The position numbers and the translations under genes were made by a program. Below the pieces are notes generated by a model. The model worked only from the letters and a program-made list of their open reading frames with translations. It was not told the DNA's origin and did not search any database. Shown here one piece after another: positions 8,418-41,921 of a DNA stretch of 64,000 nt. Every line of letters starts with the position of its first letter. Positions within the stretch are counted from its first letter, which is position 1. The stretch comes from an uncultured Bacteroidales bacterium (GTDB taxonomy: Bacteria; Bacteroidota; Bacteroidia; Bacteroidales; P3), in contig CAMHDJ010000007.1 of NCBI GenBank assembly GCA_946183915.1, positions 3,782-67,781 on the forward strand, written 5' to 3'.

Positions 8418-8449
8418 ACCGTCGTCAAAACAATGATTACCCCCATGTA

Positions 8450-9524: not shown

Positions 9525-9539
9525 CGGCCGCGGGCAGCG

Positions 9540-13598: not shown

Positions 13599-13610
13599 AA
13601 TGTCTGTTGT

Positions 13611-15841: not shown

Positions 15842-15853
15842 AGTGGATTGTTG

Positions 15854-16966: not shown

Positions 16967-16994
16967 ATCTTCAGTTTCTTTTATTGTCTATAAT

Positions 16995-17052
16995 TCATCT
17001 TTTTTGTGCATCATCTCTGCATCCCCTCTGCATCATCTCTGCATCATGTCTG
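16995..17052. repeat. GCATC-phased 11-bp tandem repeats (same family as 25933..26075, opposite orientation)
   Basis: GCATC occurs at 17008, 17019, 17030 and 17041. The reverse complement contains gatgcagagatgatgcagaggggatgcag, identical to 26022-26050. Confidence 0.85.
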
Positions 17053-18791: not shown

Positions 18792-18830
18792 AACGATAGG
18801 TTGATCTATGATGGGTATGTTGTTTTGTTT

Positions 18831-21469: not shown

Positions 21470-21480
21470 GTCGTCTTCTG

Positions 21481-24191: not shown

Positions 24192-24220
24192 CTTTATCTT
24201 TAAACTTTAATCCTTCATCT

Positions 24221-25168
24221 TTAATCCTTTAACCTTCTCATCCCCACCCTCAGGCGAGCGCTGCGGGCGCGGCTGTTGACAGCCACCTCCTCGTCGCTGG
24301 CCTGCACGGCCCCGCGACTCACCATCTGCATCGTCGACAGGGGGTTGCCGTAGAAGTCTTTTTCCACCCGCCCCTCGAAGTTGCCCGTCTTCATGAAGTT
24401 CTTTACCAGGCGGTCTTCGAGCGAGTGGTAGCTGATCACCACCAGGCGTCCCTCGGGGGTCAGCAGCTCGGCGGCCTGCTCGAGCATGGCTTTCAGGGCC
24501 TCCAGCTCGCCGTTCACCTCGATGCGGAGGGCCTGGAACAGCATGGCCAGGTACTTGTTCTCCATGCCTCGGGGCAGGTGGCGGCCGACGGCGTCGCGCA
24601 GCTGGCCCGTGGTGTCGATCGAGGCCAGGGCGCGGGCCTTCACGATAGCGCGGGCCATCTGGCGCGCATTGGGCAGCTCGCCGTAGAGGTGCAGCAGGCG
24701 TGCGAGCTCCTCTTCGTCGAGGCTGTTCACCAGGTCGCGGGCCGACACGGGCGACTGGCGGTCCATCCGCATGTCCAGCTCGCCGTCCAGGCGCGTGGAG
24801 AAGCCCCGCTCGGCGGTGTCGAACTGGTGGCTGCTCACCCCCAGGTCGGCCAGCACCCCGTCGACCTGCCGCACGCCGTGCAGCCGCAGAAACGACTTCA
24901 GGTACCTGAAATTCTCGCCGATGAACGTGAACTCGGCCTCGCTCTCGCAGCTCTCCGCTCTCCACTCGCCGCTCTCCACGCGGCGGGCGGCGTCGGGATC
25001 CTGGTCGAAGGCATAGAGGCGGCCGCCGCGTCCCAGCAGCTCCAGGATGGCACGCGAATGGCCGCCGCCGCCGAAGGTCACGTCGACATAGGTGCCTTCG
25101 GGGCGGATCTGCAATCCGTCAATCGCTTCGGTGAGCATCACCGGCCTGTGGTAGTCATTGTTCGTCAT
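24221..25168 (-). CDS. rsmH: 16S rRNA (cytosine1402-N4)-methyltransferase
   Basis: HRPVMLTEA, DVTFGGGGHS, DLGVSSHQFD and ISYHSLEDR motifs. Confidence 0.95.
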   Translation of the reverse strand: MTNNDYHRPVMLTEAIDGLQIRPEGTYVDVTFGGGGHSRAILELLGRGGRLYAFDQDPDAARRVESGEWRAESCESEAEFTFIGENFRYLKSFLRLHGVRQVDGVLADLGVSSHQFDTAERGFSTRLDGELDMRMDRQSPVSARDLVNSLDEEELARLLHLYGELPNARQMARAIVKARALASIDTTGQLRDAVGRHLPRGMENKYLAMLFQALRIEVNGELEALKAMLEQAAELLTPEGRLVVISYHSLEDRLVKNFMKTGNFEGRVEKDFYGNPLSTMQMVSRGAVQASDEEVAVNSRARSARLRVGMRRLKD

Positions 25169-25613
25169 CGTGCAACCGTCCCAGCAGCTCCTCCGCCCGC
25201 ACAGCGAAGTCGCCTGATTTAGCGTTCATTTCGTCGTAGGTCTTGCGGTCCCAGAGCTCGATGAACTTGCCGGTCGATTGCAGCACTACCTCCTTGGCCC
25301 CCGCCACCAGGGCCTTCTGCTCGGCAGGCACCAGCAGGCGGTCGTTCGAGTCGAGCTCGATGATGTTGCCTTCGGTGAGCTTGCGCAGCAGTTCGCGGTC
25401 CTCGCGGCGGTAAGGATTCAGTCTGTCTTGGAGTTTTTCCACTTCCTCCCTGAAACTGGCATAGGTCCACAGCTCCAAACACTCGGCATAGATACTCTGG
25501 CGGATCACAAAGCGCCCGTCCTCGCTCTCCAACTGCCTCTTCAGGGCAATCGGGAACTTGAAACGGCCGTTCGAATCGACCTTACAGTACTCTTTTCCAA
25601 GTATTAACGCCAT
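25155..25613 (-). CDS. mraZ: Transcriptional regulator MraZ
   Basis: A 152-aa product with two SpoVT/AbrB-like halves (DSNGRFKFP and DSNDRLLVP). It is the first gene of the dcw cluster. Confidence 0.95.
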   Translation of the reverse strand: MALILGKEYCKVDSNGRFKFPIALKRQLESEDGRFVIRQSIYAECLELWTYASFREEVEKLQDRLNPYRREDRELLRKLTEGNIIELDSNDRLLVPAEQKALVAGAKEVVLQSTGKFIELWDRKTYDEMNAKSGDFAVRAEELLGRLHDDEQ

Positions 25614-26135: not shown

Positions 26136-28328
26136 ATGAAACATTGCGCCATACCGATGCTGGTGCTGCTGGCACTGCTGGCCATCCCCCTGGCGGGACG
26201 GGCCCAGAGCCCTTATGCGATGACCAACATGGCGCGCGACTTCTGGGTGATGTTCCTGCCCAACACGGGCGGCACTCTCATGAGTCCGTTCGACGAGTGC
26301 TCGCTGGTCATCACGGGTCCCGACGACGCACGGGTGACGGTGACGAGCGGCGAGGACTCGGTGGCGATCGACTTCAGCGGCGGAGACCTCCTGAACCACC
26401 TCTGCGGCACCAACGAAGCGGTGCGGGGCCGGGCCTACCACGTCACCGCGACGGCCGACATCGCCCTCTATGCCCGCAACGCCACCAGCGGCAGCCACGA
26501 CGTGGCGATGATCATACCCACGTTTTGCCTCGGCACCAAGTACATAGCCCAGTCGGCCGCCGCCTCCCAGGGCGACACCGAGATGCTGGGCATCATAGCC
26601 ACCGAGGACAGCACGGTGGTCACCGTGCATCTGGTCAATCCCAACGGCGTGCCCATCCCGCCTGACGACATCGACGCCCCGGCCGACGGCCGGCTGCACA
26701 TACCCCTACAGCGGGGCGAAGCCTACATCGTCGGCACCCAGCAGCACCGCACCTTCGGCGCCTTCAGCGGCATGGAGGTCACCTCCAACGGGCGCCCCTT
26801 CGCCCTCTTCCAGGGCAACGGCGCGGCCCATGTGCCGACGGCCGACGAGTACCACGGCGGCCACCTCTACGAGCAGGCCGTCCCCTACAGCCAGTGGGGG
26901 CAGCTGCACCTGGTGGGGTGCGTCGGCGAGCAACAGAGCATCTACTACCTGATGACCTCGGCCGACGACGGCAACATGATCTTTTTCAACGCCTCGTCGC
27001 CCAACGGCCCCACAGGGCCGGTGATGGACCGGCTCCGCTCGCAGACCTACCAGATGCACCCCCACCCCTACAACGCCGCTTCGATTGCCACCACGGGCCG
27101 CATGGGCTTCACCCTGCTGCTGACCAGCTACGGCGCCAGCGGCTTCTGCGGAGGCCCCTCGTCGGTGATGCTGCCGTCGGTGGAGCACGGCGTGCAGCGC
27201 GCCTGGTTCACGGCCCAGATGTTCGACCCCTATCAGGAGAACCACCTCGTCATCTTCTGCGACACAGCCCTCGTCCACGGCCTGCGGCTGGACGGGGTGC
27301 CCATCAACGACAGCAGCACGTGGGACTACCTGCGCGTGCAGGCCTACCGCACCACCGTCGGCATCGGCGCCCACCGCCTGGAGGCGGACAGCGGCACCTT
27401 CGTGGCCTTCCTCTACGGCCTGCGCGACGGCTACATCGACAGCTACGCCAACCCCGTCGGCATGGCCCTCGACCCCTACCCGCGCGACACCCTGGTGCGC
27501 ACGGATACCACCTGCCGCTACGAGGCCTACCGCTGGGGCCCCTTCCACTGGGAGGAGGGCGCGCTGGCCGACACCGGCACCCTCCACCTGGAGCGCAAGG
27601 TCTACGACCCCGACACGGTGCACCTCTACCGCCTCACACTCTGTGTGTTGCCCGCCTACCGCAGCGAGGAGCGCTACACCCTGGTGCCGGGCGACACGCT
27701 GGCCATCGCCGACACGGTGCTCGCCACCCCGGGCACCTACACCTTCCGCTACCCCACCATCACCGGCTGCGACTCGGTGCTCACCGTGGTGATCGACCAC
27801 TGCACCGCCCCGGAGCCCTGCCTCGAGGTGAGCCGACCCTTCGTCGACTTCGACTACCCGGTGGTGACCTTCAGCGACCGCACCCCCGGCGACCACAGCG
27901 TCGAGTGGCGCTTCAGCGACGGCGAAGTCTATCGCAGCGCCTCCGTCAGGCGCCAGCTGCACCACCCACTGCCCGACACGCTGGGGGTGACCCTGCGCGT
28001 CTGCGACAGCGTGGGCTGCTGCGCCGACACCCTCGTCCGGCTGCCCTCGCGGGTGCGCTCGGCGTGGTTCCCCGACGTCTTCACCCCCGGCGAGGCCGAC
28101 AACCGCAGCTTCGGCTGCCTCACCACCGTCGACGCCGACCGCTACAGCCTCGACATCTACGACCGCCACGGCCAGCGCGTCTTCAGCACCGACCGCGTCG
28201 GCGACCGCTGGGACGGCACCCGCGACGGCCGCCCCTGCCCCCAGGGGGCCTACGTCTACCATTGGTTCATCGCCGACGCCTACGGCTTCCGCCAGAGCGG
28301 CACCGGCACGGTAACACTGCTGCGATAA
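26136..28328 (+). CDS. T9SS type-B cargo protein with an IgGFc-binding-like N-terminal module, PKD-like domain and gliding-motility-type C-terminal domain
   Basis: Signal peptide, then DFWVMFLPN and GGHLYEQAVPYSQWG motifs, a GCDSVLTVVI motif, and a C-terminal WFPDVFTPGEADNRSF...WDGT...GAYVYHW...GTVTLLR. Confidence 0.8.
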   Translation: MKHCAIPMLVLLALLAIPLAGRAQSPYAMTNMARDFWVMFLPNTGGTLMSPFDECSLVITGPDDARVTVTSGEDSVAIDFSGGDLLNHLCGTNEAVRGRAYHVTATADIALYARNATSGSHDVAMIIPTFCLGTKYIAQSAAASQGDTEMLGIIATEDSTVVTVHLVNPNGVPIPPDDIDAPADGRLHIPLQRGEAYIVGTQQHRTFGAFSGMEVTSNGRPFALFQGNGAAHVPTADEYHGGHLYEQAVPYSQWGQLHLVGCVGEQQSIYYLMTSADDGNMIFFNASSPNGPTGPVMDRLRSQTYQMHPHPYNAASIATTGRMGFTLLLTSYGASGFCGGPSSVMLPSVEHGVQRAWFTAQMFDPYQENHLVIFCDTALVHGLRLDGVPINDSSTWDYLRVQAYRTTVGIGAHRLEADSGTFVAFLYGLRDGYIDSYANPVGMALDPYPRDTLVRTDTTCRYEAYRWGPFHWEEGALADTGTLHLERKVYDPDTVHLYRLTLCVLPAYRSEERYTLVPGDTLAIADTVLATPGTYTFRYPTITGCDSVLTVVIDHCTAPEPCLEVSRPFVDFDYPVVTFSDRTPGDHSVEWRFSDGEVYRSASVRRQLHHPLPDTLGVTLRVCDSVGCCADTLVRLPSRVRSAWFPDVFTPGEADNRSFGCLTTVDADRYSLDIYDRHGQRVFSTDRVGDRWDGTRDGRPCPQGAYVYHWFIADAYGFRQSGTGTVTLLR

Positions 28329-28370: not shown

Positions 28371-31300
28371 ATGAAACACATGGCGATATACCTGCTGCTG
28401 ACGCTGACGGCCTCGGTCACGATACAGGCCCAGACCGCCACAATGTGCCACACCATGACCAACCGTGGTAACGATTTCTGGTTCATGTTTCTGTACAACA
28501 TGAACATCTACAGCGATACGTGGGAAAGCCATCGCCAACTGATTGTATCTGGCGACCAAAGTGCCACGATCAATATTGTGGGACCTTCCGTTAACGAGAG
28601 CTTCAATCTCACTGGAAATAGTTACAATGACCAGCATGAATACGGGAACAACCAACTGATTGTTGCCACCCCCTATAATGGCGGCTACCACTTGACATCG
28701 TCGAATGACATTTATGCCTATACCCGCAACTACGTCTCCGGCACACACGACATCGCCACACTATTGCCAAGCTCGGCCCTGGACACCATTTACATTGTAC
28801 AAGATTTCCCTTCACAGCAGTACGGCGGCGAAGTTGGATTTGTCGCCACCGAGGACAACACCGTACTCTCCATGACCGTCCCCTGCAACATCAGCGGGAC
28901 AACCATCACCGCTGGCACAACATTGAACCCAGTGCTGCAACAGGGACAGGCTTATCTGCTGCTAGGTGTCGGTTCGCTGTCGAACATGGTAGTCACCTCC
29001 AACGGAAAACCCTTTGCAATGTTCCAAGGAGCGTGGAACCCTGCTGTTCCAGAGTATAGCGGCGGTCGTGACCACATGTATGAACAGGCGTTGCCAATCA
29101 AATACTGGGGAACTGACTTCATCGTACCCTGTGCTGCGGCACAAACCGGCAACAACTGCATTCGAATCACCGCTTCCGAGGACAACTGCACCGTTACACT
29201 TGACAGCATTAGCCAAGGGATCATCAATGCAGGGCAAACGCTGCAATTATATAAGCCTGCCTCCGGGATATATTCTATCCATACAAGCAAACCTGCAATG
29301 GTGGCGCTCTACCTCACCAGCTATGCTGTCAGCGGTGGCGACCCTGCCTCGGTCATCATTCCTCCTCTTGACCGTGGTGTGTGCGAAAGCCATTTTGTAC
29401 TGCACAACACCTCTGTCATCAATTCCCATTACGTTAACATTGTATGCGACAGTTCCTACAGCAATGGTTTACACTTCGATGGGAATCCGGTTCCCGCCAC
29501 GCCCACTACCCATGGGCGCTACAAGATATATCGCTTCTCCACAACGGCAGGCTACCATCAGATAGAGAATTCATCGGGTCCATTCGTTGCCTATGCGTAT
29601 GCTGTAGCTTACTATGAAGGCTGCGCCTTCCCGTTGGGCTTCGGATTGGACACCGTGGTACCGACGCCACCTGTTGTCAACCCCAACTGTTCGGAGAGGA
29701 CACTGACGAGCACCGACTTCTGGGTGACGTTCATCACCAACGGCACACTGTCCGAGACGCAGTTCTCGCTGCTCGTCACGGGGCTGGACGACGCCACGGT
29801 GAACGTCGTCAACCCCCGGACCGGATGGAGCACCAGCGCGACCCACACCGGCGGCAGCCAGACCCACATCACGCTGCCGTCGCCGGCCAGCCTCCCCTCG
29901 GCTTCGGCGGCCGACTTCGGCTTCCACGTCACCTCGACGGCCGACATCTCGCTCTTCGAGAGCAACTACCGGCCCGACTCGTGGGACCTCTGCTGCGTGA
30001 TTCCGACCGAGTATCTCTCCACGACCTACCTCGTGCAGGACTACCCGAACAACAGCAACTACCCGGGCGGTATGGCCCTGCTGGCCATCGAGGACGGCAC
30101 CACGCTCACCATGACGCTGCCCTGCACGGTGAACGGCCTCAGCCTGCCGGCGGGAAGCACCTACACCGTCAGCCTCAACGCGGGCCAGTCGCTGGCGTTG
30201 CACAGCCCCACAGGGCAGGCCTTCAGCGGCATGAGGGTCACCTCGAACGGCAAGCCCTTCGCCCTCTTCCAGGGCCACTCCTGCGCTCGCGTGGGCACCG
30301 ACGACGAGCAGCGCGGCCGCGACCACATGGTGGAGCAGGCCATACCGCTCGACTGGTGGGGGCAGGAGTTCGTGGTGGTGTCGGAGCAGGCCCGCACCGA
30401 GGGCGACCGCATCCGCATCACCGCGGCCACCGACAACAGCCACGTGCACATTGCGGAGGCCTCGGGCAACGTGGACGTGACCCTCCAGGCCGGCGAGACC
30501 CACGAGTACCACCTGCCGCCGCACTCGGCCGCCTACATCACCTCCGGCCATCCGGTCTACGTCTGCAAGTACCTCATCAGCTTCGACAAGTTCAACCCCA
30601 CGTCGCTCGGCGACCCCGCGTCGGTAGACATACCGCCGGTGCACAACTGGCTCTGCTCGACCACCTTCCCGGTCTACGACTGCAACACCGACCACAACAG
30701 CGAGCACTACATCCAGTCCGGGCACCACTACTTCGACCTGGTGACCACCGTCGACGCGATCCCGACCATGCAGCTCGACGGCACGACGCTCCCCGCCGCG
30801 GGTTTCACCTTCCTGGGCGGCACCCCCTACTGCTACTACCACGGCACCGTCAACCCCGGCGCCCACACGCTGAGCAACAACGCGGGCCCGTTCTACGCCA
30901 CCGTCTCCGCCCACAGCCGCTGGGTGGCCTACTCCTTCCTGACCGGCATGGCGCTGGAGCCCCTGCACCAGCAGCTGATACACGACACGGTGCACGTCGA
31001 CGACACCGTGTGCCAGGGCGAGCCCTACAGCCTCGACGCCGGCGGCATCGAGGGGCTCATCTTCATCCCGACCGACTCCACCGCCCAGCCCGGCACCCTC
31101 GAACGATGGGCCGACTGGGTGGAGGACGACACGCTGGTGCACCACATCCACCTGCTGCTCACCGTGCTGCCCGCGGCCACCGTCGACACCGCGGCCACCA
31201 TCATCCTGGGCGACACGCTCCTCTTCCAGACCGACACCCTGACGCGCGCCGGCGACTACACCTACCGCTTCACGGCCGCCAACGGGTGCGACTCGACCCT

Positions 31301-32075
31301 GACGCTGCACCTCGCCTACGAGTCCATCGCACTCACGGCCAGCGCCGACGGCCTCTGCCCGGGCGACTCGGCCATCCTCACCGCCAGCGGCGTCCACTAC
31401 GCCTGGTGGAGCGCCACGCCGCCCGACCCCGCCCTCGGCGCCCAGCAGGGGCAGACCGCCATCGTCGTGGCCCCGGACACCACCACCGTCTTCGCCCTCT
31501 GCGCCGACAGCACGAGCGGCCCGCTGGCCGTGATCACCGTCGGCGTCGAGCCCCCGCCCGCGCTCTGCGTCGAACTGAGCCGACCCTTCATCGACTTCGA
31601 CCACCCAGTGGTGATCTTCACCGACTGCAGCCAGGGCAGCGACCACTCGCTCTGGACCTTCAGCGACGGCTACACCATCGGCACCCCGCGGGCGCGCCGC
31701 CAGTTCCACCACCCGCTGCCCGACAGCGTCGAGGTGACCCTCCGCAGCTGCAACCAGTGGAACTGCTGCCGCGACACCACCTTCAGCATCGACTCGCGCA
31801 TCCGCTCCGTGTGGTTCCCCAACGTCTTCACCCCCGGCGGCGAGAGCAACCAGCGCTTCGGGGCCACCCTCTCGTTCGAGGCCGTGGAGTTCGAACTGCT
31901 GATCTTCAACCGGTTGGGACTGCTCATCTACCGCACCGACGACCCCGCCGCCACTTGGGACGGCACCCACGACGGCCGTCCGGTGCCGCAGGGGGCCTAC
32001 GTCTACCACTGGCACGTGCGCGACACCTACGACTACAACCATACGGGCATCGGCACCGTCACCCTCCTTCGCTGA
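28371..32075 (+). CDS. T9SS type-B cargo protein with two tandem IgGFc-binding-like modules (paralog of 26136..28328)
   Basis: Start MKHMAIYLLLTLTASVTIQAQ, chosen downstream of the promoter box (the ORF track starts at 28344). GNDFWFMF and TDFWVTFI module starts, DHMYEQALP and DHMVEQAIP motifs, GCDSTLTLHL, and a C-terminal WFPNVFTPGGESNQRF...GTVTLLR. Confidence 0.8.
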   Translation: MKHMAIYLLLTLTASVTIQAQTATMCHTMTNRGNDFWFMFLYNMNIYSDTWESHRQLIVSGDQSATINIVGPSVNESFNLTGNSYNDQHEYGNNQLIVATPYNGGYHLTSSNDIYAYTRNYVSGTHDIATLLPSSALDTIYIVQDFPSQQYGGEVGFVATEDNTVLSMTVPCNISGTTITAGTTLNPVLQQGQAYLLLGVGSLSNMVVTSNGKPFAMFQGAWNPAVPEYSGGRDHMYEQALPIKYWGTDFIVPCAAAQTGNNCIRITASEDNCTVTLDSISQGIINAGQTLQLYKPASGIYSIHTSKPAMVALYLTSYAVSGGDPASVIIPPLDRGVCESHFVLHNTSVINSHYVNIVCDSSYSNGLHFDGNPVPATPTTHGRYKIYRFSTTAGYHQIENSSGPFVAYAYAVAYYEGCAFPLGFGLDTVVPTPPVVNPNCSERTLTSTDFWVTFITNGTLSETQFSLLVTGLDDATVNVVNPRTGWSTSATHTGGSQTHITLPSPASLPSASAADFGFHVTSTADISLFESNYRPDSWDLCCVIPTEYLSTTYLVQDYPNNSNYPGGMALLAIEDGTTLTMTLPCTVNGLSLPAGSTYTVSLNAGQSLALHSPTGQAFSGMRVTSNGKPFALFQGHSCARVGTDDEQRGRDHMVEQAIPLDWWGQEFVVVSEQARTEGDRIRITAATDNSHVHIAEASGNVDVTLQAGETHEYHLPPHSAAYITSGHPVYVCKYLISFDKFNPTSLGDPASVDIPPVHNWLCSTTFPVYDCNTDHNSEHYIQSGHHYFDLVTTVDAIPTMQLDGTTLPAAGFTFLGGTPYCYYHGTVNPGAHTLSNNAGPFYATVSAHSRWVAYSFLTGMALEPLHQQLIHDTVHVDDTVCQGEPYSLDAGGIEGLIFIPTDSTAQPGTLERWADWVEDDTLVHHIHLLLTVLPAATVDTAATIILGDTLLFQTDTLTRAGDYTYRFTAANGCDSTLTLHLAYESIALTASADGLCPGDSAILTASGVHYAWWSATPPDPALGAQQGQTAIVVAPDTTTVFALCADSTSGPLAVITVGVEPPPALCVELSRPFIDFDHPVVIFTDCSQGSDHSLWTFSDGYTIGTPRARRQFHHPLPDSVEVTLRSCNQWNCCRDTTFSIDSRIRSVWFPNVFTPGGESNQRFGATLSFEAVEFELLIFNRLGLLIYRTDDPAATWDGTHDGRPVPQGAYVYHWHVRDTYDYNHTGIGTVTLLR

Positions 32076-32095
32076 CCCTTCCAACCCCCGTGAAA

Positions 32096-32299
32096 CCCTG
32101 CCTGCTCCCTGATGGCTCCCTGATGACTCCCTGATGACTCTCTTAAAACCAGGGTAAAATCCTTGCCCTGTCAGCGTTTTGCGAGTTTTCCAGCATGGTT
32201 TGCACACTTTCAAAGTGCTAGATGCCTCGTTCAGAATGTTTTAAAGGTGCAAATTAGATCGTGCACGATCTAATTTTTTGACTTAAATTAACTTAAATT
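32096..32299 (+). repeat. Dispersed repeat family, copy A (core with 26-bp palindrome at 32251-32276)
   Basis: About 200 bp collinear with 38938-39140, and with 57176-57372 in reverse. It starts with phased ccctgatggct ccctgatgact ccctgatgact and contains aaattagatcgtgcacgatctaattt. Confidence 0.85.
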
Positions 32300-32503
32300 G
32301 AAGAAAACGGCGAACCGTTCGCCGTTAAAATCTTTGTGTGGAACGGGCTGTTCTCCGTTTTGCCATCCTGCCGACACCTCTGCCTCCAACGGGGCCGCGG
32401 AGGGGCATGTTCCCGCTGCACCTTCGGGTGCCCTCGCCGGGGGATGCCTTCGCCATCCGCACATTTTTTTCGGCAAAAAGGCGTCCAATTCGAAAAAAAG
32501 TCG

Positions 32504-32511
32504 TATATTTG
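32504..32511 (+). promoter_or_regulatory. -7 box TATATTTG upstream of the S46 peptidase gene
   Basis: It matches TAnnTTTG, 48 nt before the ATG at 32559. Confidence 0.45.
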
Positions 32512-32558
32512 CACCTCGTTAGAAAAGGCGAAAAACAATAATAAAAACAAATAAAACA

Positions 32559-34721
32559 ATGAAAATTCGTACATTAGTGATTGCAATGGCCCTGATGGTG
32601 CTGGCACCGAGTGTGGCTCGCGCCGACGAGGGCATGTGGCTCCTGTCCCTGATCGGGAAGAACTACGACGACATGCGTCGTGCCGGCTTCCAGCTGACGC
32701 CGGAGGATATCTACAGTGTGAACCAAAGCTGCCTGAAAGACGCCATCGTAGGTCTGGGCAACGCCGGCAGCCCCTTCTGGCACTTCTGCACGGGCGAGAT
32801 CATCTCGTCGAAGGGCCTCATCTCCACCAACCACCACTGCGGCTACGGCAAGCTGCAGGAGCACTCGACCGTGGAGCACGACTACCTGCGCGATGGCTTC
32901 TGGGCCTACACCCTGGAGCAGGAGCTGCCCAACCCGGGCCTGACGGCCTCGATCCTGGTGAGGATGGAGGATGTGACCGCCCGCGTCAAGGAGAACCTCA
33001 GCGACGACATGAGCGAGGCCGACCGCGCCGCCGCCATCAAGAAGGTGTGCCGCGTGATCGAGGACGAGGCCACCGAGGGCACCCCCTATGCTGCCCAGGT
33101 GAAACCCATGTTCAACGGCAACCAGTTCTTCCTCTTTGTGCACATCATCTATCGCGACGTGCGCCTCGTGGGTGCTCCCCCGTCGTCGATGGGCAAGTTC
33201 GGCGGCGACACCGACAACTGGTCGTGGCCGCGTCACACGTGCGACTTCTCCCTCTTCCGCATCTACACCGCCCCCGACGGTAGCCCGGCCGACTACAGCA
33301 AGGACAACGTGCCCCTGCAGCCCAAGCACCACCTGCCCGTGAGCGCCGGCGAGATCAACGACGGCGACTTCGCCATGGTGATGGGCTTCCCCGGCACCAC
33401 CGACCACTTCCTCACCTCCTACGGCCTGGCCGAGACCATGGACGTCACCAACAAGCTCCGCTACGAGATCCGCACCGTGAAGATCAACATCCTGCGCGAA
33501 GAGATGGCCGCCGACCAGGCCACCCGCATCAAATACGCCTCCAAGTATGCCTCCTGCTCCAACTACTGGAAGTACAGCCACGAGCAGAACAAGGCCCTGA
33601 AGAACCTCAACACCATGGGCGTCAAGCAGCAGGTGGAGAAAGAATACAGCGACTGGGCCCGCTTCCAGAAGGCTCCGAAGTACAACGACGCCCTCGGACT
33701 GATCCGCCAGGGCTACGCCGCCCGCCGCGACGTGGAGGAGGCCCAGCAGTACCTCTACGAGGGCATCCTGGCCGGTGCCGAGGCACCGCTCTTCGCCGCC
33801 CGCCTGAGCCGCACCTTCGCCAAAGAGCTTGGCGAGGACAAGAAGGCCGACCTCAGCCGCTACCGTGGCTACATAGCCAACTTCTACAAGGACTATGACG
33901 AGCAGGTGGACCGCCGCCTGGCCGCCGCCCTCTTCGGCTACGTCTACTCGCACATGGATCCCGCCAAGTGCCCTGAGTTCCTCACCAAGGCCCAGAAGAA
34001 GTACAAAGGCGACTGGAACAAGTACGTCGACCAGCTCTACAAGGGCAGCATCTTCGCCAACGCCGAGGCGCTGGCCAAGTTCATGGAGAAACCCAACGCC
34101 AAGAAGGCCGAGAACGACCCGCTGGCCGCCGTGGGTAGCCAGGCCCTCGACTACTACCTCGCCCTCAACGCCGCCGTGCCCCAGCAGACCACCGACAACC
34201 TGCAGCGCGGCATTCGCGACTTCACCGACGGTATCCTCCAGATCAACGACGGCAAGAAACTCATGTCGCCCGATGCCAACTCCACCATCCGCCTCACCTA
34301 CGGCAACGTGATGAGCTACGACCCCAAGGACGGCGTCTCCTACCACTACTACACCACCATGGACGGCGTCATCCAGAAGGAAGACCCCGAGAACGCCGAG
34401 TTTGAGGTGCCCGCCCGCCTGAAAGAGCTCTACGCAGCCAAGAACTTCGGCCCCTACACCAATAAGAAGGGTGAGATGCCGGCCTGCTTCATCACCAACA
34501 ACGACATCACCGGTGGCAACAGCGGCTCGCCCGTCATCAACGGCAAGGGCGTCCTCATCGGCCTGGCATTCGACGGCAACAGCGAGGCCATGAGCGGCGA
34601 TATCGACTTCGAGGAGAACCTGCAGCGCTGCATCTGCCTCGACAGCCGCTACATGCTCTGGGTCATCGATATCTATGCCGGGGCCAAGAACCTCATCGAA
34701 GAAATGGACATTGTCCGATAA
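32559..34721 (+). CDS. S46-family dipeptidyl-peptidase (DPP7/DPP11-like)
   Basis: Signal peptide followed by the hallmark ADEGMWL. STNHHCGYG (catalytic His region) and TGGNSGSPVIN (catalytic Ser). Confidence 0.9.
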   Translation: MKIRTLVIAMALMVLAPSVARADEGMWLLSLIGKNYDDMRRAGFQLTPEDIYSVNQSCLKDAIVGLGNAGSPFWHFCTGEIISSKGLISTNHHCGYGKLQEHSTVEHDYLRDGFWAYTLEQELPNPGLTASILVRMEDVTARVKENLSDDMSEADRAAAIKKVCRVIEDEATEGTPYAAQVKPMFNGNQFFLFVHIIYRDVRLVGAPPSSMGKFGGDTDNWSWPRHTCDFSLFRIYTAPDGSPADYSKDNVPLQPKHHLPVSAGEINDGDFAMVMGFPGTTDHFLTSYGLAETMDVTNKLRYEIRTVKINILREEMAADQATRIKYASKYASCSNYWKYSHEQNKALKNLNTMGVKQQVEKEYSDWARFQKAPKYNDALGLIRQGYAARRDVEEAQQYLYEGILAGAEAPLFAARLSRTFAKELGEDKKADLSRYRGYIANFYKDYDEQVDRRLAAALFGYVYSHMDPAKCPEFLTKAQKKYKGDWNKYVDQLYKGSIFANAEALAKFMEKPNAKKAENDPLAAVGSQALDYYLALNAAVPQQTTDNLQRGIRDFTDGILQINDGKKLMSPDANSTIRLTYGNVMSYDPKDGVSYHYYTTMDGVIQKEDPENAEFEVPARLKELYAAKNFGPYTNKKGEMPACFITNNDITGGNSGSPVINGKGVLIGLAFDGNSEAMSGDIDFEENLQRCICLDSRYMLWVIDIYAGAKNLIEEMDIVR

Positions 34722-37001
34722 ATGAAGCAAATACAGCGACAGCAACTGCAACAGAAACTCTCGCCTCAGCAGATCCAACTGATGCGACTGTTGCAGTTGC
34801 CCGTCACTGACCTCGAACAGGCCATCAAAGAGGAGGTGGAGAAAAACCCCCTGCTCGAGGCCGAAGCCACCGACACCGAACCCCTCCCCACCCCGGACAA
34901 CGACACCAGCGACTGGGACGCGCCGGACGACGACGGGTTCGACTACGACTATCGCGAGCACCTGGAGAGCGACCCCAACGTCGCACACCGCGAGTTCGTG
35001 GTCAGCGACACCCTCTCATTCACCGAACGGCTCCTCGGACAACTGGCCCTTCGCCAGCTCACAGAGCGCCAACAAGCCATCGCCACCGAGATCATCGGCA
35101 CCCTCGACGACGCCGGATACCTGGGGCGCGACCTGGCCCTCCTGGCCAACGACCTGGCCTTTCGCCAGGGCATCGAGGCCGACGAGCAGGAGATGGAGCA
35201 GGCCTTGCACATCGTGCAGAGCCTCGACCCTGCCGGCATCGGTGCCCGCAACCTGCAGGAGTGCCTTCTGCTGCAGCTGCAACGCGACGACCAACCCGCC
35301 GATCTTGACCACATCAACGCCACAGCAATCGTGCGCAACCACTTCGGCGACTTTGCCAGTCACCGCTACGAACGCATCTGCTCCGCCCTCAACATCGACG
35401 AAGAAGCCTTCGATCGCGCCAGCAACATCATCCGTCACCTCAACCCCAAGCCCGCCGGTTCGACCGACGTCGACAGCGACACCGCCGCCACAGTCATCCC
35501 CGACATCATCCTCACACAGCATGACGGGCAGCTTCAGTTCTACCTCAACGACAGCCATCTGCCCCGTCTGAGCCTCAACGAGTACTACACCGACATGCTG
35601 CACGAAATGGAAAACAGCAAGGGTGACAAGGCTACCATCCAGTTTCTGCGTACCAAGCAGGCCGATGCCCAGGGCTTCATCGACCTTCTGCGGCAGCGTC
35701 ACGACACCATCGTGCGCGTCATGCGCTACATCGTCAAGCACCAACGCCGCTTCCTCCTCAGCGGTGACCCCGACCAACTGCAGCCCCTGCGGCAGCGTGA
35801 AGTGGCCGAAGCCACCGGCCTCGACATCAGCACGGTCTCCCGCATGGCCAACAGCAAGTACCTTCAGACCGACTTCGGCACCATACCCCTCAAGGATTGC
35901 TTCTCCAAAGGCATGGCCACCGACAGCGGCGACGAGGTATCGGTCGAGACCATCAAGCAGCATCTGGCCGACATCATCGGGCGCGAAGACAAGCAGAACC
36001 CCCTCTCAGACGACGCCATCGCCAAGCTTTTCAACCAGCAAGGGCTGCCCCTGGCCCGCCGCACGGTGGCCAAATACCGCGAGCAACTGGGCATTCCTGT
36101 GGCCCGCCTGCGCCGCGTGCTGCTGCTTTTGCTGCTGGTCGCCTCCCCCCTCTGGAGCCAAGCCCAAGCCTCATACTACGACTCTATCATAGCCATCCGT
36201 CTCGAAGCCGGCGCCCGACAGCAGGCCCAACAGAAGCGTGCCACCGTCAAAGCCCAGGCTCTCGTCGAGGCTCCCAAGCCCGTCAAAGGGGGTGGCCGCA
36301 CAGCAAGCGCCGACCCAGCCCCCGCCCCGGCGGCCACCACGGCCGAGGCCTTCACGGTACCGCTCTGGTACGACGGCTTCCCACACCACCGCGTCAACCC
36401 CCTGGGGCGCACCCAACTCGACCAGTTGCCCGACGAGATCAACCTGCTGCTGGCACGCGACACGGCCGATTTCTGCTTTCCGGTGCACGGATCCAAGACC
36501 AGTCCCTACGGCTGGCGCTGGCATCGGGGCCACCACGGCGTCGACATCGCCCTGCGCACGGGCGACCCGGTGCACGCAGCTTTCAGCGGCACCGTGCGGG
36601 TGGCCACCCGCATGGGCGGCTACGGCAACTGCGTCGTCATACGCCATGCCAACGGCCTCGAGACCCTCTACGGACACCTCTCGAAGATCAACGTCGCCAC
36701 CAACCAGCCCGTCGAGGCGGGCGACGTCATAGGCCTCGGCGGTTCGACCGGCAACAGCACCGGCCCACACCTCCACTTCGAGTGCCGATTCCTCTACCAG
36801 ACCTTCGACCCCGAGTGGATTCTCGACTTCAACAGCCACTCGCTCCGCACCCGGCGGCTGCACCTCGACAAGAGCTACTTCGGCATCCGCCAGCCCCGCC
36901 AGGGCGAGAAGCTGGCCTACAAGGCCGACGAGAGCATCATACGCGAGAGCCGCAAACGCTCCAAAAAACAACCCACCACCCACACCCAAAAAGACTTCTG
37001 A
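34722..37001 (+). CDS. rpoN: RNA polymerase sigma-54 factor ORF that continues in frame into an M23 peptidase (RpoN homology ends near 36119)
   Basis: Gln/Leu-rich region I MKQIQRQQLQQKLSPQQIQLMRLLQLP and RpoN box ARRTVAKYREQLGIPVARLRR. There is no stop codon before 37001. Confidence 0.8.
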   Translation: MKQIQRQQLQQKLSPQQIQLMRLLQLPVTDLEQAIKEEVEKNPLLEAEATDTEPLPTPDNDTSDWDAPDDDGFDYDYREHLESDPNVAHREFVVSDTLSFTERLLGQLALRQLTERQQAIATEIIGTLDDAGYLGRDLALLANDLAFRQGIEADEQEMEQALHIVQSLDPAGIGARNLQECLLLQLQRDDQPADLDHINATAIVRNHFGDFASHRYERICSALNIDEEAFDRASNIIRHLNPKPAGSTDVDSDTAATVIPDIILTQHDGQLQFYLNDSHLPRLSLNEYYTDMLHEMENSKGDKATIQFLRTKQADAQGFIDLLRQRHDTIVRVMRYIVKHQRRFLLSGDPDQLQPLRQREVAEATGLDISTVSRMANSKYLQTDFGTIPLKDCFSKGMATDSGDEVSVETIKQHLADIIGREDKQNPLSDDAIAKLFNQQGLPLARRTVAKYREQLGIPVARLRRVLLLLLLVASPLWSQAQASYYDSIIAIRLEAGARQQAQQKRATVKAQALVEAPKPVKGGGRTASADPAPAPAATTAEAFTVPLWYDGFPHHRVNPLGRTQLDQLPDEINLLLARDTADFCFPVHGSKTSPYGWRWHRGHHGVDIALRTGDPVHAAFSGTVRVATRMGGYGNCVVIRHANGLETLYGHLSKINVATNQPVEAGDVIGLGGSTGNSTGPHLHFECRFLYQTFDPEWILDFNSHSLRTRRLHLDKSYFGIRQPRQGEKLAYKADESIIRESRKRSKKQPTTHTQKDF
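36099..37001 (+). CDS. M23/LytM-family metallopeptidase (candidate internal GTG start in the rpoN frame)
   Basis: A GTG at 36099 would give MARLRRVLLLLLLVASPLWSQAQA (a Sec signal). M23 motifs HRGHHGVDIA, GYGNCVVIRHANGLETLYGHLS and GSTGNSTGPHLHFE. The start is uncertain. Confidence 0.55.
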   Translation: MARLRRVLLLLLLVASPLWSQAQASYYDSIIAIRLEAGARQQAQQKRATVKAQALVEAPKPVKGGGRTASADPAPAPAATTAEAFTVPLWYDGFPHHRVNPLGRTQLDQLPDEINLLLARDTADFCFPVHGSKTSPYGWRWHRGHHGVDIALRTGDPVHAAFSGTVRVATRMGGYGNCVVIRHANGLETLYGHLSKINVATNQPVEAGDVIGLGGSTGNSTGPHLHFECRFLYQTFDPEWILDFNSHSLRTRRLHLDKSYFGIRQPRQGEKLAYKADESIIRESRKRSKKQPTTHTQKDF

Positions 37002-37004
37002 CCC

Positions 37005-37487
37005 ATGAAAAAGACCAACCTCTCCGACTACGACCCCGCGGCAGTGCCCGACGGAAGCCCCTATACCATCGGCGTCATCGCGGCCGAATGGAACCCCCAG
37101 ATCACCGACGCCCTGCTTGCCGGCGCCGTCGACACCCTGCGCCAGCACGGCGTCCGCGAGGAGAACCTCCTCGTGCGCCGCGTGCCCGGCACCTTCGAGC
37201 TCAGCTCGGCGGCCGACATGATGATCCATTTCAGCCAGGTCGACGCCGTGATCTGCATCGGTTGCGTCATCCAGGGCGAGACACGCCACTTCGAGTTCAT
37301 CTGCCAAGCCGTGGCTCAGGGCATCACCAACGTGGCCCTCAAGCACGAACGGCCCGTCATCTTCAGCGTGCTCACCTGCGACACCATGGAGCAAGCCCTC
37401 GACCGCGCCGGCGGCCGCCACGGCAACAAAGGCGTCGAAGGCGCCGTCACCGCCCTCAAGATGCTCGCCTACCGCGCCTCGGTCTGA
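37005..37487 (+). CDS. ribH: 6,7-dimethyl-8-ribityllumazine synthase
   Basis: A 160-aa product with IGVIAAEWNPQIT, RVPGTFEL and the GCVIQGETRHFEFI motif. Confidence 0.9.
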   Translation: MKKTNLSDYDPAAVPDGSPYTIGVIAAEWNPQITDALLAGAVDTLRQHGVREENLLVRRVPGTFELSSAADMMIHFSQVDAVICIGCVIQGETRHFEFICQAVAQGITNVALKHERPVIFSVLTCDTMEQALDRAGGRHGNKGVEGAVTALKMLAYRASV

Positions 37488-37517: not shown

Positions 37518-38453
37518 ATGAAGACAATCTTCTTCGGCACGCCCGATTTTGCCGTCGAGAGCCTCGACGCCATCCTGCATTCGACCCACGAGGTCTGCGC
37601 CGTGGTCACCGTGCCCGACCGGCCAGCCGGCCGCGGGCAGAAGGTGATCTACAGCGCCGTGAAGCAGTACGCCCTCGACCACAGCCTGCCCCTGCTGCAA
37701 CCCGAGCGGCTGCGCGACGAGGCCTTCCTCGCCGCCCTGCGCGCCTACGGGGCCGACTGCTTCGTCGTGGTGGCCTTCCGCATGCTGCCCGAGGTGGTGT
37801 GGGCCATGCCGCCCCGCGGCACCTTCAACCTGCACGCCTCGCTCCTGCCCCGCTACAGAGGCGCAGCCCCCATCAACTGGGCCATCATGCGCGGCGAGCG
37901 CGAGACCGGCGTCACCACCTTCCTGCTCAACCACCGCATCGACGAAGGCTCGATCCTGCTGCAGCGCTCCACCCCCATCGCCCCCGACGACACCGCCGGC
38001 ACGCTGCACGACCGGCTGGCCTCCATGGGGCGCTCGCTCGTCGTCGACACCCTCGACGGCCTGGCCGACGGCAGCCTCACCCCCCGCCCCCAGCAGGGCG
38101 ACCCCTGCCCGGCCCCCAAGATCTTCAAGGACGACTGCCGCATCGACTTCGACCGTCCCGGCGAGGAGGTGGTCGACTTCGTGCGCGGCCTGGCGCCCTA
38201 CCCCGCCGCCGTCATGACCCTCCGCTCGCCCAAGGGCGAAAGCATCCCCTTCAAAGTCTTCGACGTGCGCTTCCACAGCGCCCCGACAGGCAGCGAAAAG
38301 AGGCTCCAAACCGACGGAAAAAAAGTGCTAAAAGTCGTTGTGGCAAACGGTTTCGTGGAAATTTTGAGCCTACAAATGGCCGGAAAAAAGAAAAACAACA
38401 TCGAAGAATTCCTGCGCGGAAATCAGTTAACAGGTTGGGAATTAGATATTTGA
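37518..38453 (+). CDS. fmt: Methionyl-tRNA formyltransferase
   Basis: IFFGTPDFAV, NLHASLLPRYRGAAPINWAI and a C-terminal formyltransferase domain. Confidence 0.9.
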   Translation: MKTIFFGTPDFAVESLDAILHSTHEVCAVVTVPDRPAGRGQKVIYSAVKQYALDHSLPLLQPERLRDEAFLAALRAYGADCFVVVAFRMLPEVVWAMPPRGTFNLHASLLPRYRGAAPINWAIMRGERETGVTTFLLNHRIDEGSILLQRSTPIAPDDTAGTLHDRLASMGRSLVVDTLDGLADGSLTPRPQQGDPCPAPKIFKDDCRIDFDRPGEEVVDFVRGLAPYPAAVMTLRSPKGESIPFKVFDVRFHSAPTGSEKRLQTDGKKVLKVVVANGFVEILSLQMAGKKKNNIEEFLRGNQLTGWELDI

Positions 38454-39441: not shown

Positions 39442-39945
39442 ATGAAACAGAAACTTCACCTGCTGGCCATGCTCTTCGTGGCCTCGACCATGACCCTGGG
39501 CCTGGTGGCCTGTCAAGACGACGAACCCGAGCAGCCCGCAGTGCGCAACCTGGCGGGCACCACCTGGGAAAACCAGACCGAACACACCCACTACCAGGAG
39601 GTTCAACCGGGCTACGCCATCGAGATGAACGTCAGCCTGAACGCCGTCCTCGACATCCTGGACGGCGAGAACGCCGACCTCTTCATGGACATTGCCGTCG
39701 AGGTGCCCGCCGTTCCGGCAGCCAACCAGAACGTCACGCAGGACGACACCTGCGCCTACACCTTCGACGGCACCACGCTGGTGCTCCACAACCAGGAGGA
39801 CGAGGGCTTCAACGGCGGAAACGACACGCTGACCTACCACGCCGATGCCAACACCTTCACCCTGCACATCTACAATCCCGATGCGAAAGAGATGCTGGGC
39901 GTCAGCGAGTTGACATTCCACCAAACCCGGGGAGGTCAGCAATGA
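39442..39945 (+). CDS. Small lipoprotein (167 aa), candidate cognate inhibitor or partner of the downstream C10 protease
   Basis: Lipobox LGLVAC in MKQKLHLLAMLFVASTMTLGLVACQDDE. Its stop overlaps the protease ATG (ATGA at 39942-39945). The functional call is by analogy only. Confidence 0.6.
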   Translation: MKQKLHLLAMLFVASTMTLGLVACQDDEPEQPAVRNLAGTTWENQTEHTHYQEVQPGYAIEMNVSLNAVLDILDGENADLFMDIAVEVPAVPAANQNVTQDDTCAYTFDGTTLVLHNQEDEGFNGGNDTLTYHADANTFTLHIYNPDAKEMLGVSELTFHQTRGGQQ

Positions 39946-41921
39946 AGCGGCTGGCATTGGCGGCAGCGCTGCTGCTGAGCCTGGGAGCCACGGCGGCGCC
40001 GGTATCGGCCGGACGCGCGGCGGCGGCAGCGGCAGCCTTCTGGCAGGCCGTAGGGCCGCAGGGGCCCCGCGCCGCGACCCTCGACGCGCAGCCCACCCCC
40101 TGGGCCTACGACGGCATCTACCTCTTCCGCTCTGAGGCGGGCGGCTGGGTGATGGTGGCGGCCGACGATGCGGCCTACCCCATCCTGGGCTACGCCACCA
40201 CGGGCACCCTCGACCCCGCACGCCTGCCGGTGCAGCTGGAGGAATGGCTCACGGGCTACCAGCAGCAGATCGACTGGCTGCGCGACAACGACGGCCAGCC
40301 CTACGCCGAGACGGTGGACCTCTGGGCCGAGCTCGACCGGGGCAGCGTGCCGCCGGCACCCAAGAGCGGCAGCGTCGCGCCGCTGCTCACCACCCGCTGG
40401 GACCAGACGGCCCCCTACAACGAGCAGTGCCCGCCGGCGACCGTCACCGGCTGCGCCGCCACGGCCCAGGCCCAGATGATGAAATACTGGAACCATCCCG
40501 CCATCGGCACCGGTAGCCACCGCTACCTGCACCCACGCTACGGCGAGCTGATCGCCGACTTCGGCCACACGCCCTACGCCTGGTCGCTGATGCCGGACGA
40601 GCCCACCCTGGCCTCGCCCGCCGCCGAGCGCGCCGCCGTGGCACAGTTGATGTACCACGTGGGCGTGAGCCTCGAGATGATGTACGGCACCGCTGCCGAC
40701 GGGGGCAGTTCGGCCATCGGCCTGGTCGGCATGCCGGGCTACGCCAGCATCGACAACTCGCTGCAGGACTACTTCGGCTACAGCCGCGAGATGTATTCCA
40801 TCTTCCGCGACAACGGCTACACCGACGACCTGTGGCGCGCAGCGCTGATCGACGAGCTCGACCAGCGGCACCCCGTGATCTACGCCGGCGCCGCCGAGCA
40901 GGGCGGCCACGGCTTCGTGTGCGACGGCTACGACGAGCGCGAGTACCTCCACTTCAACTTCGGCTGGAGCGGCATCGGCGACGGCTACTACCGCGTGGAC
41001 TCCATCAGTCCAGGTGTGGGCGGAGCCGGCGGCAACGTGACCTACACCTTCAACCTGCAGAACTCGGCCCTCATCGGCGCCGTGCCGGTCTACCGCATGA
41101 TGGTCAGCGACACCGTCTTTTCTTTCGGGCGCGATGGAGGTGTCGACTCGGTGCTCTTCGCCCCCAACGCAGCCATCAACAGCATGTGGGAGGTCAGCAG
41201 CACAGCCGACTGGCTCAGCGTGGAGTCGTCCCAACCGGGCAGTGGCATGTGGGTGCACATCGTCACCTCGCCCAACACGAGCGGAGCTGGACGGGTAGCC
41301 TGGCTGAACTTCGTGCAAGGCACGGATACACTGAAGGTCAAGGTGGCCCAGACAGCCTACAGCGAAGAGGAGATGTGTCCCGTGAAGGTGGTCATGGAAT
41401 CGACCCACGGCAGCGGCTGGCAGGGCGGCGCCTACCTCAGCCTCGAGTCGCTTGACGGCTTCGTCTTCGGCACCGCCACCCTCGAGAGCGGCTCCGAAGG
41501 GGTGGTCTCCATCCCGGTGGCTCCGCACGACGTGCGCGCGGTGTGGCATCGCGGCGGCGGCACCGACCGCTACATCAACTACCTGGTGCGCAACCAGTAC
41601 AACGAGACGCTGGTCGAGGTGAACTACGCCTACCAGAACGGCGGCACCCACTTCATCGAGTGGCCTTGCTCACATGTGGGCATCGAGACGCCCAGCACGA
41701 GCCGCGCCCCGAAGATCGAAGTGTACCCCAACCCCGCGGGTGACCAGCTGCACGTCCGCGCCGACGGCCTGACGCTTGTCGAGTTGCTTGATGTCAGCGG
41801 ACGTCGGGTGCTCAGCACCGACCGCGCCGACATCGACCTGCGTACCCTCCCGGCCGGTCCCTACTTCGTGCGCCTCACCACAGAAGGCACCACCACCGTC
41901 AAACGTATCGTCAAACGGTAG
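39942..41921 (+). CDS. C10-family cysteine protease (streptopain/interpain-like) with propeptide and T9SS type-A CTD
   Basis: Catalytic Cys context TGCAATAQAQMMKYWNHP and His context GGHGFVCDGYD...HFNFGWSGIGDGYY. The C-terminus is IEVYPNPAGDQLHV...GPYFVRLTT...KRIVKR. Confidence 0.9.
   Translation: MKRLALAAALLLSLGATAAPVSAGRAAAAAAAFWQAVGPQGPRAATLDAQPTPWAYDGIYLFRSEAGGWVMVAADDAAYPILGYATTGTLDPARLPVQLEEWLTGYQQQIDWLRDNDGQPYAETVDLWAELDRGSVPPAPKSGSVAPLLTTRWDQTAPYNEQCPPATVTGCAATAQAQMMKYWNHPAIGTGSHRYLHPRYGELIADFGHTPYAWSLMPDEPTLASPAAERAAVAQLMYHVGVSLEMMYGTAADGGSSAIGLVGMPGYASIDNSLQDYFGYSREMYSIFRDNGYTDDLWRAALIDELDQRHPVIYAGAAEQGGHGFVCDGYDEREYLHFNFGWSGIGDGYYRVDSISPGVGGAGGNVTYTFNLQNSALIGAVPVYRMMVSDTVFSFGRDGGVDSVLFAPNAAINSMWEVSSTADWLSVESSQPGSGMWVHIVTSPNTSGAGRVAWLNFVQGTDTLKVKVAQTAYSEEEMCPVKVVMESTHGSGWQGGAYLSLESLDGFVFGTATLESGSEGVVSIPVAPHDVRAVWHRGGGTDRYINYLVRNQYNETLVEVNYAYQNGGTHFIEWPCSHVGIETPSTSRAPKIEVYPNPAGDQLHVRADGLTLVELLDVSGRRVLSTDRADIDLRTLPAGPYFVRLTTEGTTTVKRIVKR

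Follow-up and report, generated by a model that had tools for sequence, protein, structure and literature searches.

Is a sigma factor gene that runs without a stop codon into a gene for an exported enzyme an assembly error, a pair of genes nested in one frame, or a protein that is truly made as a fusion with its neighbour? The question is raised by a locus in a 64,000-nucleotide stretch of contig CAMHDJ010000007.1, from an uncultured Bacteroidales bacterium, which we call the window and number from its first letter. The original prediction for this locus described a 759-aa open reading frame (ORF) in which a complete sigma-54 (RpoN) continues in frame into a Sec-signal-like segment and an M23 peptidase. 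Pfam and TIGR02395 matches confirmed this layout: a single reading frame carries Sigma54_AID (residues 2-46), Sigma54_CBD (93-289), Sigma54_DBD (307-465) and Peptidase_M23 (603-697). The fusion is real and selectively maintained, and we have very little doubt that it is functional. We put at roughly 60% the probability that its product is a polyprotein from which signal peptidase I would release two parts, an M23 endopeptidase of the periplasm and a sigma-54 that keeps a short hydrophobic tail. The parts of the locus are as follows, with a slash marking a predicted cleavage site here and below.

34722..37001, + strand: fused ORF, ATG to TGA, 759 codons plus stop, encoding sigma-54, a signal-peptide-like segment and an M23 peptidase
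34722..36116, + strand: sigma-54 (RpoN) moiety, residues 1-465, with AID (region I), core-binding and DNA-binding domains
36054..36116, + strand: RpoN box ARRTVAKYR (residues 445-453) and C-terminal tail EQLGIPVARLRR
36099..36101, + strand: GTG, codon 460, the candidate internal start of the original prediction, not conserved as a start
36102..36164, + strand: internal signal-peptide-like segment with n-region ARLRR (461-465), h-region VLLLLLLVASPLW (466-478) and c-region SQA (479-481)
36162..36167, + strand: predicted signal peptidase I site Ala481/Gln482, of the Bacteroidetes Q-rule type
36165..36998, + strand: predicted mature periplasmic protein, residues 482-759 (278 aa)
36171..36221, + strand: SYYDSIIAxRLEA motif just past the predicted cleavage site
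36222..36356, + strand: variable linker (about residues 501-545), in which Ala, Pro, Lys and Gln are frequent and no consensus is seen; predicted local distance difference test (pLDDT) score below 50
36528..36812, + strand: Peptidase_M23 (LytM-type) catalytic domain
36999..37001, + strand: TGA, the sole stop open to ribosomes that initiate at the rpoN ATG

Taken singly, each module is a typical member of its family. The sigma-54 moiety matched PF00309 (E = 1.8e-13), PF04963 (E = 2.3e-55) and PF04552 (E = 4.3e-48), and residues 7-465 aligned with all 434 positions of the rpoN equivalog TIGR02395 of NCBIfam, with a score of 415 bits where the cutoff is 277. The sequence ARRTVAKYRE is invariant across an alignment of 39 fused sequences. 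The fusion layout of the original prediction stood, with its residue positions off by about one (the RpoN box begins at residue 445 and the GTG is codon 460). A soluble, stand-alone RpoN would end a few residues past the RpoN box; here the frame runs 294 codons further. The peptidase domain matched PF01551 at 110 bits (cutoff 28.7; E = 6e-32), and its closest solved relatives were 3SLU and 6MUK (E about 1e-26). Its HxxxD (H604 and D608) and HxH (H683 and H685) residues, together with H652, are all five invariant in the 39 aligned sequences, and these intact active-site residues point to a putative activity in cleaving peptidoglycan cross-links. The NCBI name for the unfused orthologues of this peptidase is 'peptidoglycan DD-metalloendopeptidase family protein'.

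The length of the ORF is not evidence of coding in this window, because its high GC content at third codon positions (GC3 0.83; 60% GC overall) yields spurious antisense ORFs of great length, up to 804 aa; one of these, at 32574-34988 on the - strand, faces both the S46 peptidase gene that precedes the fused ORF and the 5' part of rpoN. The case for fusion was instead built on the in-frame domain matches, on the uniform GC3 of the two halves of the ORF (0.83 and 0.84) and on conservation.

Conservation of the fused arrangement is broad. At least 120 protein clusters at the 90% identity level are fused in the same way, at 69-100% identity, with lengths of 723-781 aa and the same four Pfam domains. 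The 120 best clusters were drawn from ENA, Logan, JGI and NCBI assemblies, and each reads through ...ARRTVAKYREQLGIPVARLRR into a variable hydrophobic stretch, then xAQx, then SYYDS (AYYDS in one). A metagenome scan with the C-terminal motif gave 80 loci; from many metagenomes, these include 53 different DNA sequences across the fused junction and 46 fused ORFs that are complete (740-793 codons); these 46, once aligned, served as the set for all codon-460 and promoter-motif counts below. A contig scan that used generic M23 motifs recovered both a fused locus (L001) and an unfused adjacent pair (L002). Further fused representatives lie at a distance of 44-52% identity (P0121-P0126 and P0128), most of them with a C-terminal LysM domain. 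The carriers are uncultured Bacteroidales metagenome-assembled genomes, mostly from rumen and gut metagenomes, and the named relatives are all called 'Bacteroidales bacterium'.

Both halves of the protein are under purifying selection. The ratio of nonsynonymous to synonymous substitution rates (dN/dS) is 0.11 over RpoN and 0.05 over the M23 region, compared with 0.58 in the hydrophobic and cleavage region and 0.33 in the linker; it falls to 0.12 over the SYYDSIIAxRLEA motif. Most of the fused clade has this motif in strongly conserved form; the unfused sister clade and a fused group that includes P0124 and L138 lack it. A missed stop, an indel or a chimeric assembly in the window contig had one prior reason in its favour, namely that most sigma-54 proteins among the 150 best representatives are 445-545 aa long and end just past the RpoN box. 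The junction is, however, likewise open in an independent assembly from a near-identical strain (L081; 99.1% nucleotide identity, 21 differences), as it is in the 120 clusters and the 53 distinct junction DNAs, with selection acting on both sides. The original prediction had proposed looking for a stop after ARLRR as a way to overturn the fusion; the junction was open in every fused relative examined. It had likewise allowed that all relatives might have separate genes, and separate genes were found only in a sister clade. Conservation across more than 50 independent assemblies rules out sequencing or assembly error, to which we assign a negligible probability.

Existing annotation gives little hint of this architecture, as the pipeline label of the fused proteins is only 'RNA polymerase factor sigma-54'. 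Four further gene calls of 357-444 aa (P0415, P0417, P0418 and P0430) consist of a Sigma54_DBD end and an M23 domain; these are probably fused ORFs cut at contig ends or given internal starts by the gene caller, and automated gene calling is evidently inconsistent at the fused locus.

The segment that joins the two modules has the anatomy of a signal peptide, as originally predicted; an n-region, an h-region and an A/Q site recur across 119 sequences. In the window, the h-region VLLLLLLVASPLW is followed by SQA/QA and then SYYD, the uncleaved stretch across the junction being ...LRRVLLLLLLVASPLWSQAQASYYDSIIAIR. The positive n-region of this putative export signal is supplied by RpoN's own ARLRR. 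The distance from RR to A/Q is 15-18 residues in 115 of the 119 sequences, and the uncharged run is 11-18 residues long (mean 13). Position -1 is Ala in 106 (89%); at position -3, 114 sequences have L, A, M, G, S, V, T or I and the other 5 have Q; and a Gln stands one or two residues ahead of SYYDS in all 119. The hydrophobic residues themselves drift freely, with 93 distinct segments among the 119 sequences. The segment matches, in both shape and hydrophobicity, the N-terminal signal peptides encoded by other genes of the window, such as MMKKALLSLLMAFVCLPAVYA/QSAP at 49690. The segment departs from an ordinary signal peptide in its location, 460 residues into the ORF with no conserved start codon before it. 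A lipoprotein signal was also considered and was rejected, as the fused clusters have no conserved Cys after the h-region.

In Bacteroidetes, cleavage by signal peptidase I commonly exposes a Gln that glutaminyl cyclase converts to pyroglutamate, a pattern known as the Q-rule (PMC5837995, PMC10653852). The junction of the fused proteins conforms to it. The retention of a small residue at -1 and of the Gln, while the rest of the segment drifts, would be hard to explain unless cleavage were selected. We therefore consider cleavage by signal peptidase I at A481/Q482 probable.

How this joint arose can be read from unfused relatives. Unfused Bacteroidota RpoN proteins mostly end 0-3 residues past the same motif, most of them as ...ARLRKEL and a stop. 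In the closest unfused clade (L146-L160), rpoN (...RLRKEL and a stop) is directly followed by an orthologous M23 gene with an ordinary MK...A/Q signal peptide, for example MKSFRPAIHRITRHLAAMAASLLLLAALPLSA/QTD. At most of these loci the rpoN stop codon touches or overlaps the M23 start codon or is separated from it by only a few bases, as in the following cases.

L147: stop and start overlap as TGATG
L160: stop and start overlap as ATGA
L153: stop and start abut, TGA directly followed by ATG

The distant, AT-rich Bacteroidales locus L002 has the order rpoN, TAA directly followed by ATG, M23, ribH, fmt, which is the gene order of the window. Because unfused relatives show abutting or overlapping stop and start codons before an orthologous M23 gene, we conclude that the ancestral state was a translationally coupled pair of rpoN and an M23 gene with its own signal peptide. 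The unfused pairs (L146-L160 and L002) and the window fusion share orthologous genes in the same order, a homologous hydrophobic and A/Q part and the same catalytic core; the pairs have an rpoN stop, an M23 ATG and a basic n-region belonging to M23, and the window fusion lacks all three. On this evidence, fusion proceeded by loss of the rpoN stop, of the peptidase start codon and of the peptidase n-region. Some deep fused lineages keep ARLRR-G-MKLMVLV or ARLRK-G-MAVVLAL, which has the look of a stop codon converted to a sense codon.

A neighbour-joining (NJ) tree of the RpoN moiety places the majority of the fused proteins in a single large clade, with the clade of unfused adjacent pairs as its sister; P0128 and a second fusion family, with a Peptidase_S13 partner, fall in other parts of the tree, which carries no support values. 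The tree also places an unfused protein of 481 aa (P0130, ending ...ARLRRSVQGEK and a stop) beside the fused P0121 inside the fused super-clade, which could reflect a reversion to separate genes, multiple fusions, or an artefact of the tree or of assembly.

The second family comprises nine clusters (P0264 and P0274-P0281; 67-100% identity; three data sources) in which RpoN is fused in frame to Peptidase_S13 of the PBP4 type. Enzymes of this type are D-Ala-D-Ala carboxy/endopeptidases. The junction reads ...NIPSAQARK-ILKVLILLMMLPLMMMA/QNFGNAQ, and the two families are thus alike in having a basic RpoN end (here ...ARKILK), an h-region, an A/Q site and a periplasmic peptidoglycan enzyme. They differ in the partner enzyme and in the RpoN lineage, which forms a separate deep branch of the NJ tree; for these reasons the S13 fusion appears independent. 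At locus L161 the RpoN-S13 gene (8001-10787) lies between folE and lipB, with a dapB-lepB (Peptidase_S26) pair upstream, a typical Bacteroidota context. The sigma-54 fusion design thus appears, from these sequences, to have evolved at least twice, with M23 and S13 partners. Its recurrence with another enzyme and another RpoN lineage speaks for an arrangement that can work and may bring an advantage.

We propose the following route for the M23 fusion. Ribosomes starting at the rpoN ATG would make a 759-aa precursor, the RpoN part of which would fold in the cytoplasm. As residues 466-478 emerge, the chain would be directed to the SecYEG translocon, with ARLRR staying in the cytoplasm according to the positive-inside rule, and the C-terminal 278 residues would be translocated into the periplasm. 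Signal peptidase I would then cut at Ala481/Gln482 to free an active M23 enzyme of the DD-endopeptidase (LytM) type, the new N-terminal Gln of which would probably be cyclised, as in other exported proteins of Bacteroidetes. Sigma-54 (residues 1-481, about 54 kDa) would keep a 16-residue hydrophobic C-terminal tail. While held at the membrane it would probably be inactive and unlikely to bind DNA as part of the holoenzyme, because the tail starts only ~12 residues past the -24-reading RpoN box helix. A tail of this length cannot span the membrane stably. Sigma-54 may leave the membrane unaided; alternatively, the tail could be cut by enzymes that clear signal peptides, such as a site-2 protease of the RseP type or SppA. 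RseP clears signal peptides from the Escherichia coli membrane (PMC8144685) and frees sigma domains in RseA, FecR and IutY-type systems (PMC8144685, PMC8999054). Such protease-assisted release is plausible here, though we rate its chance as somewhat below even. By this route, sigma-54 and a cell-wall hydrolase would always be made in a 1:1 ratio, and sigma-54 would be born at the membrane. That the tail also gates sigma-54, keeping it inactive until an intramembrane protease or extraction frees it, is a more speculative proposal that we hold only tentatively.

Two other accounts of the same ORF need to be weighed against this route. The original prediction left open whether the locus is a fusion or two genes nested in one frame, and comparison of relatives favours the fusion. 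Under nesting, M23 would be made mainly from an internal start at GTG 460 or nearby, the read-through product would be a tolerated by-product, and sigma-54 would work despite its tail or after nonspecific trimming of it. Initiation at GTG 36099 would, as predicted, yield a textbook signal peptide (M-ARLRR-VLLLLLLVASPLWSQA/Q); codon 460 is GTG in 34 of the 46 aligned ORFs, most of the others have an ATG, GTG or TTG a few codons away, and deeper fused lineages retain the old Met (for example ARLRRG-MKLMVLV and ARLRKG-MAVVLAL). Yet the codon varies in the other 12 (GTA in 5, ATC in 3, ACG in 2, GTT and GCG in 1 each), and in three loci (L107, L112 and L123) no ATG, GTG or TTG could give a working signal peptide before the middle of the h-region. 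Although GTG makes up 85% of the Val codons at this position, compared with a mean of 55% (standard deviation 24%) over 15 conserved Val columns, other columns are similarly rich (84% at 361, 79% at 669), and the enrichment is mild and not significant. Nor do the 46 ORFs show synonymous constraint at the junction, where the observed-to-expected ratio of synonymous-site diversity is 0.88-0.96, as against 0.53-0.68 at the true 5' end of rpoN. Bacteroidetes initiate translation on A-rich, unstructured leaders rather than by Shine-Dalgarno pairing, and the 30 nt upstream are 60% AT and 36% A at the true rpoN start compared with 28% AT and 10% A at the junction. No Bacteroidetes -7 motif (TAnnTTTG) was found within 300 nt before the junction in any of the 46 fused loci. 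The locus thus lacks the conserved internal start with its own initiation signal seen in nested genes such as those for IF2 alpha/beta and long and short CheA. We conclude that initiation within the ORF is not conserved, and that it may be a minor route in the window sequence; nesting as the main explanation is unlikely. Even if it were correct, rpoN would have no stop, so a fused precursor would still be made; as originally argued, rpoN translation can end only at the peptidase stop on either account. Frameshifting to an off-frame stop was also considered and is disfavoured, as the DNA of the h-region is too variable to hold a slippery site; nothing is conserved in the other frames near the junction, and the +1 frame of the window meets a stop at 36192.

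The other account accepts the fusion and denies the cut: sigma-54 would be part of a permanent bitopic protein, tied by an uncleaved signal anchor to periplasmic M23, and the whole would act as a one-piece transmembrane sigma factor or sensor that is freed only on a signal. Its topology would be that of fused extracytoplasmic function (ECF) sigma/anti-sigma proteins such as IutY, which is freed by Prc and RseP (PMC8999054). The N-in, C-out layout of the window protein does fit a tethered sigma factor, the long variable linker could let an anchored M23 domain reach peptidoglycan, and AlphaFold drew one continuous helix through the junction (residues 458-510, at low confidence). The uncharged run, however, has the length of a signal peptide and falls short of a transmembrane helix or stable membrane span, and any tethering to the membrane may be no more than transient. 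That the small residue at -1 and the Gln at +1 are kept despite fast drift around them makes sense only if cleavage is selected, and the homologous segment of unfused orthologues serves as a signal peptide of the ordinary, cleavable kind. Linker length, tried as a clue to permanent anchoring, proved uninformative, being long in the unfused L002 and short in the fused P0124. We consider a permanent anchor improbable, more so than nesting, and favour the polyprotein cut by signal peptidase I.

Several points weigh against that polyprotein. The share of GTG at codon 460 is the highest of the 15 conserved Val columns, a start there would give the same textbook signal peptide in about three quarters of the relatives as in the window, and some internal initiation could occur alongside the fusion. 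The hydrophobic tail on sigma-54 could be a degradation tag rather than harmless. The AlphaFold2 model built from the 39-sequence alignment was poor (mean pLDDT 61, with the M23 half mostly below 50), and the NJ tree that hints at independent origins has no support values. Export, cleavage, release and regulatory use are all deduced from sequence. Finally, the carriers may have a second, stand-alone rpoN elsewhere in the genome.

The genes around the fused ORF suggest how it is transcribed. Its immediate neighbours are listed here.

32504..32511, + strand: TATATTTG, a match to the -7 motif TAnnTTTG, 48 nt before the ATG of the S46 peptidase gene
32559..34721, + strand: Peptidase_S46 (DPP7/11-type) with its own N-terminal signal peptide; PF10459, E = 1.6e-227
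37005..37487, + strand: ribH (lumazine synthase), downstream of the fused ORF
37518..38453: fmt, after ribH

From 31500 to 37100, the + strand has no match to TAnnTTTG other than TATATTTG, the likely promoter of an operon. The TAA of the S46 gene directly abuts the rpoN ATG (taaATG, 34719-34724); because of this abutment and the promoter motif, the S46 gene, the rpoN-M23 fusion and ribH look like one tight operon. The window contains no gene for a GAFTGA-type activator (bacterial enhancer-binding protein), and the sigma-54 site TGGCAC-N5-TTGC had one match in it, with one mismatch, compared with three expected by chance.

Elsewhere in the window, two tandem + strand genes (26136-28328 and 28371-32075) encode secreted proteins of 730 and 1234 aa with IgGFc_binding domains and a CHU_C type IX sorting domain. 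A third + strand gene (39942-41921) encodes a streptopain-like Peptidase_C10 with an Inhibitor_I69 prodomain and a Por_Secre_tail of the type IX secretion system (T9SS), along with a weak BACON match below the Pfam cut-off. A dcw-like cluster occupies about 10458-25613 on the - strand (ftsZ-like at 10458-12068, ftsA-like at 12216-13598 and mraZ-like at 25155-25613), a call made by eye from N-terminal translations. Over positions 1-64000 there were no tRNA genes and no Rfam match at the gathering threshold.

To our knowledge, sigma-54 has been treated as a soluble protein of ~50 kDa that is controlled only through ATPase activators. Our literature search found no sigma-54 fusion, no membrane-tethered sigma-54, no bacterial internal signal peptide of such design and no SYYDSII peptide. 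An rpoN without a stop, an RpoN C terminus that serves as an n-region and a sigma-54 covalently joined to an exported enzyme therefore appear to be new by the literature, and the RpoN-S13 fusion is likewise undescribed.

The nearest known kinds are ECF sigma/anti-sigma hybrids and pro-sigma factors, all of the sigma-70 family. The ECF hybrids (IutY of Pseudomonas putida; ECF48, ECF52 and ECF53, including SCO4117) likewise have a C-terminal membrane segment and an extracytoplasmic domain, and IutY is released by proteolysis that involves RseP (PMC8999054). They differ in that their extension is an anti-sigma or sensor domain reached through a stable transmembrane helix, whereas the window protein combines sigma-54, which is unrelated to them in sequence and mechanism, with a cleavable-looking joint and an intact hydrolase partner. 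The pro-sigma-K/SpoIVFB and sigma-E/RseA/DegS/RseP systems resemble the route proposed here in having a membrane-held, probably inactive sigma factor, and a membrane segment left with a short stub after a cut on the outer side is the type of substrate that site-2 proteases take (PMC8144685, PMC6242693). The tether of pro-sigma-K is an N-terminal pro-sequence and that of sigma-E is a separate anti-sigma protein; in the window protein the tether would be in cis and C-terminal, and the first cut, by signal peptidase I, would be constitutive.

Closest in mechanism are eukaryotic and viral proteins in which a cytoplasmic part that binds nucleic acid or is regulatory, an internal signal sequence and a translocated part are made as one chain; signal peptidase splits the chain and the cytoplasmic part is released. 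The hepatitis C virus core-E1 region is one such case, a polyprotein whose internal signal peptide is cut by signal peptidase. Another is iRhom2, cut by the signal peptidase complex (PMC7618786). Both are non-homologous to the window protein and act at the eukaryotic endoplasmic reticulum.

Sigma-54 regulons have been proposed to centre on the cell exterior, including peptidoglycan precursors, in a study that makes no mention of a fusion (PMC3162934). The 1:1 synthesis and membrane-proximal birth of sigma-54 envisaged here fit that proposal. If the tail does gate sigma-54, the sigma-54 regulon would be coupled to secretion, to the state of the envelope and to the production of a cell-wall hydrolase, and this would be the first proteolysis-controlled, membrane-born sigma-54 as well as a natural bacterial polyprotein resolved by signal peptidase.

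The locus records a path from an overlapping stop and start to a full fusion, one that was repeated with a second cell-wall enzyme, and its annotation as plain sigma-54 hides both a peptidase gene and an unusual architecture. In the rumen and gut, a whole clade of abundant Bacteroidales has no way to make sigma-54 other than as a precursor linked to a peptidoglycan hydrolase that is exported. If that precursor is processed as predicted, it would be a bacterial counterpart of the polyproteins that signal peptidase splits in viruses and eukaryotes, and would tie a global transcription factor to envelope biogenesis.

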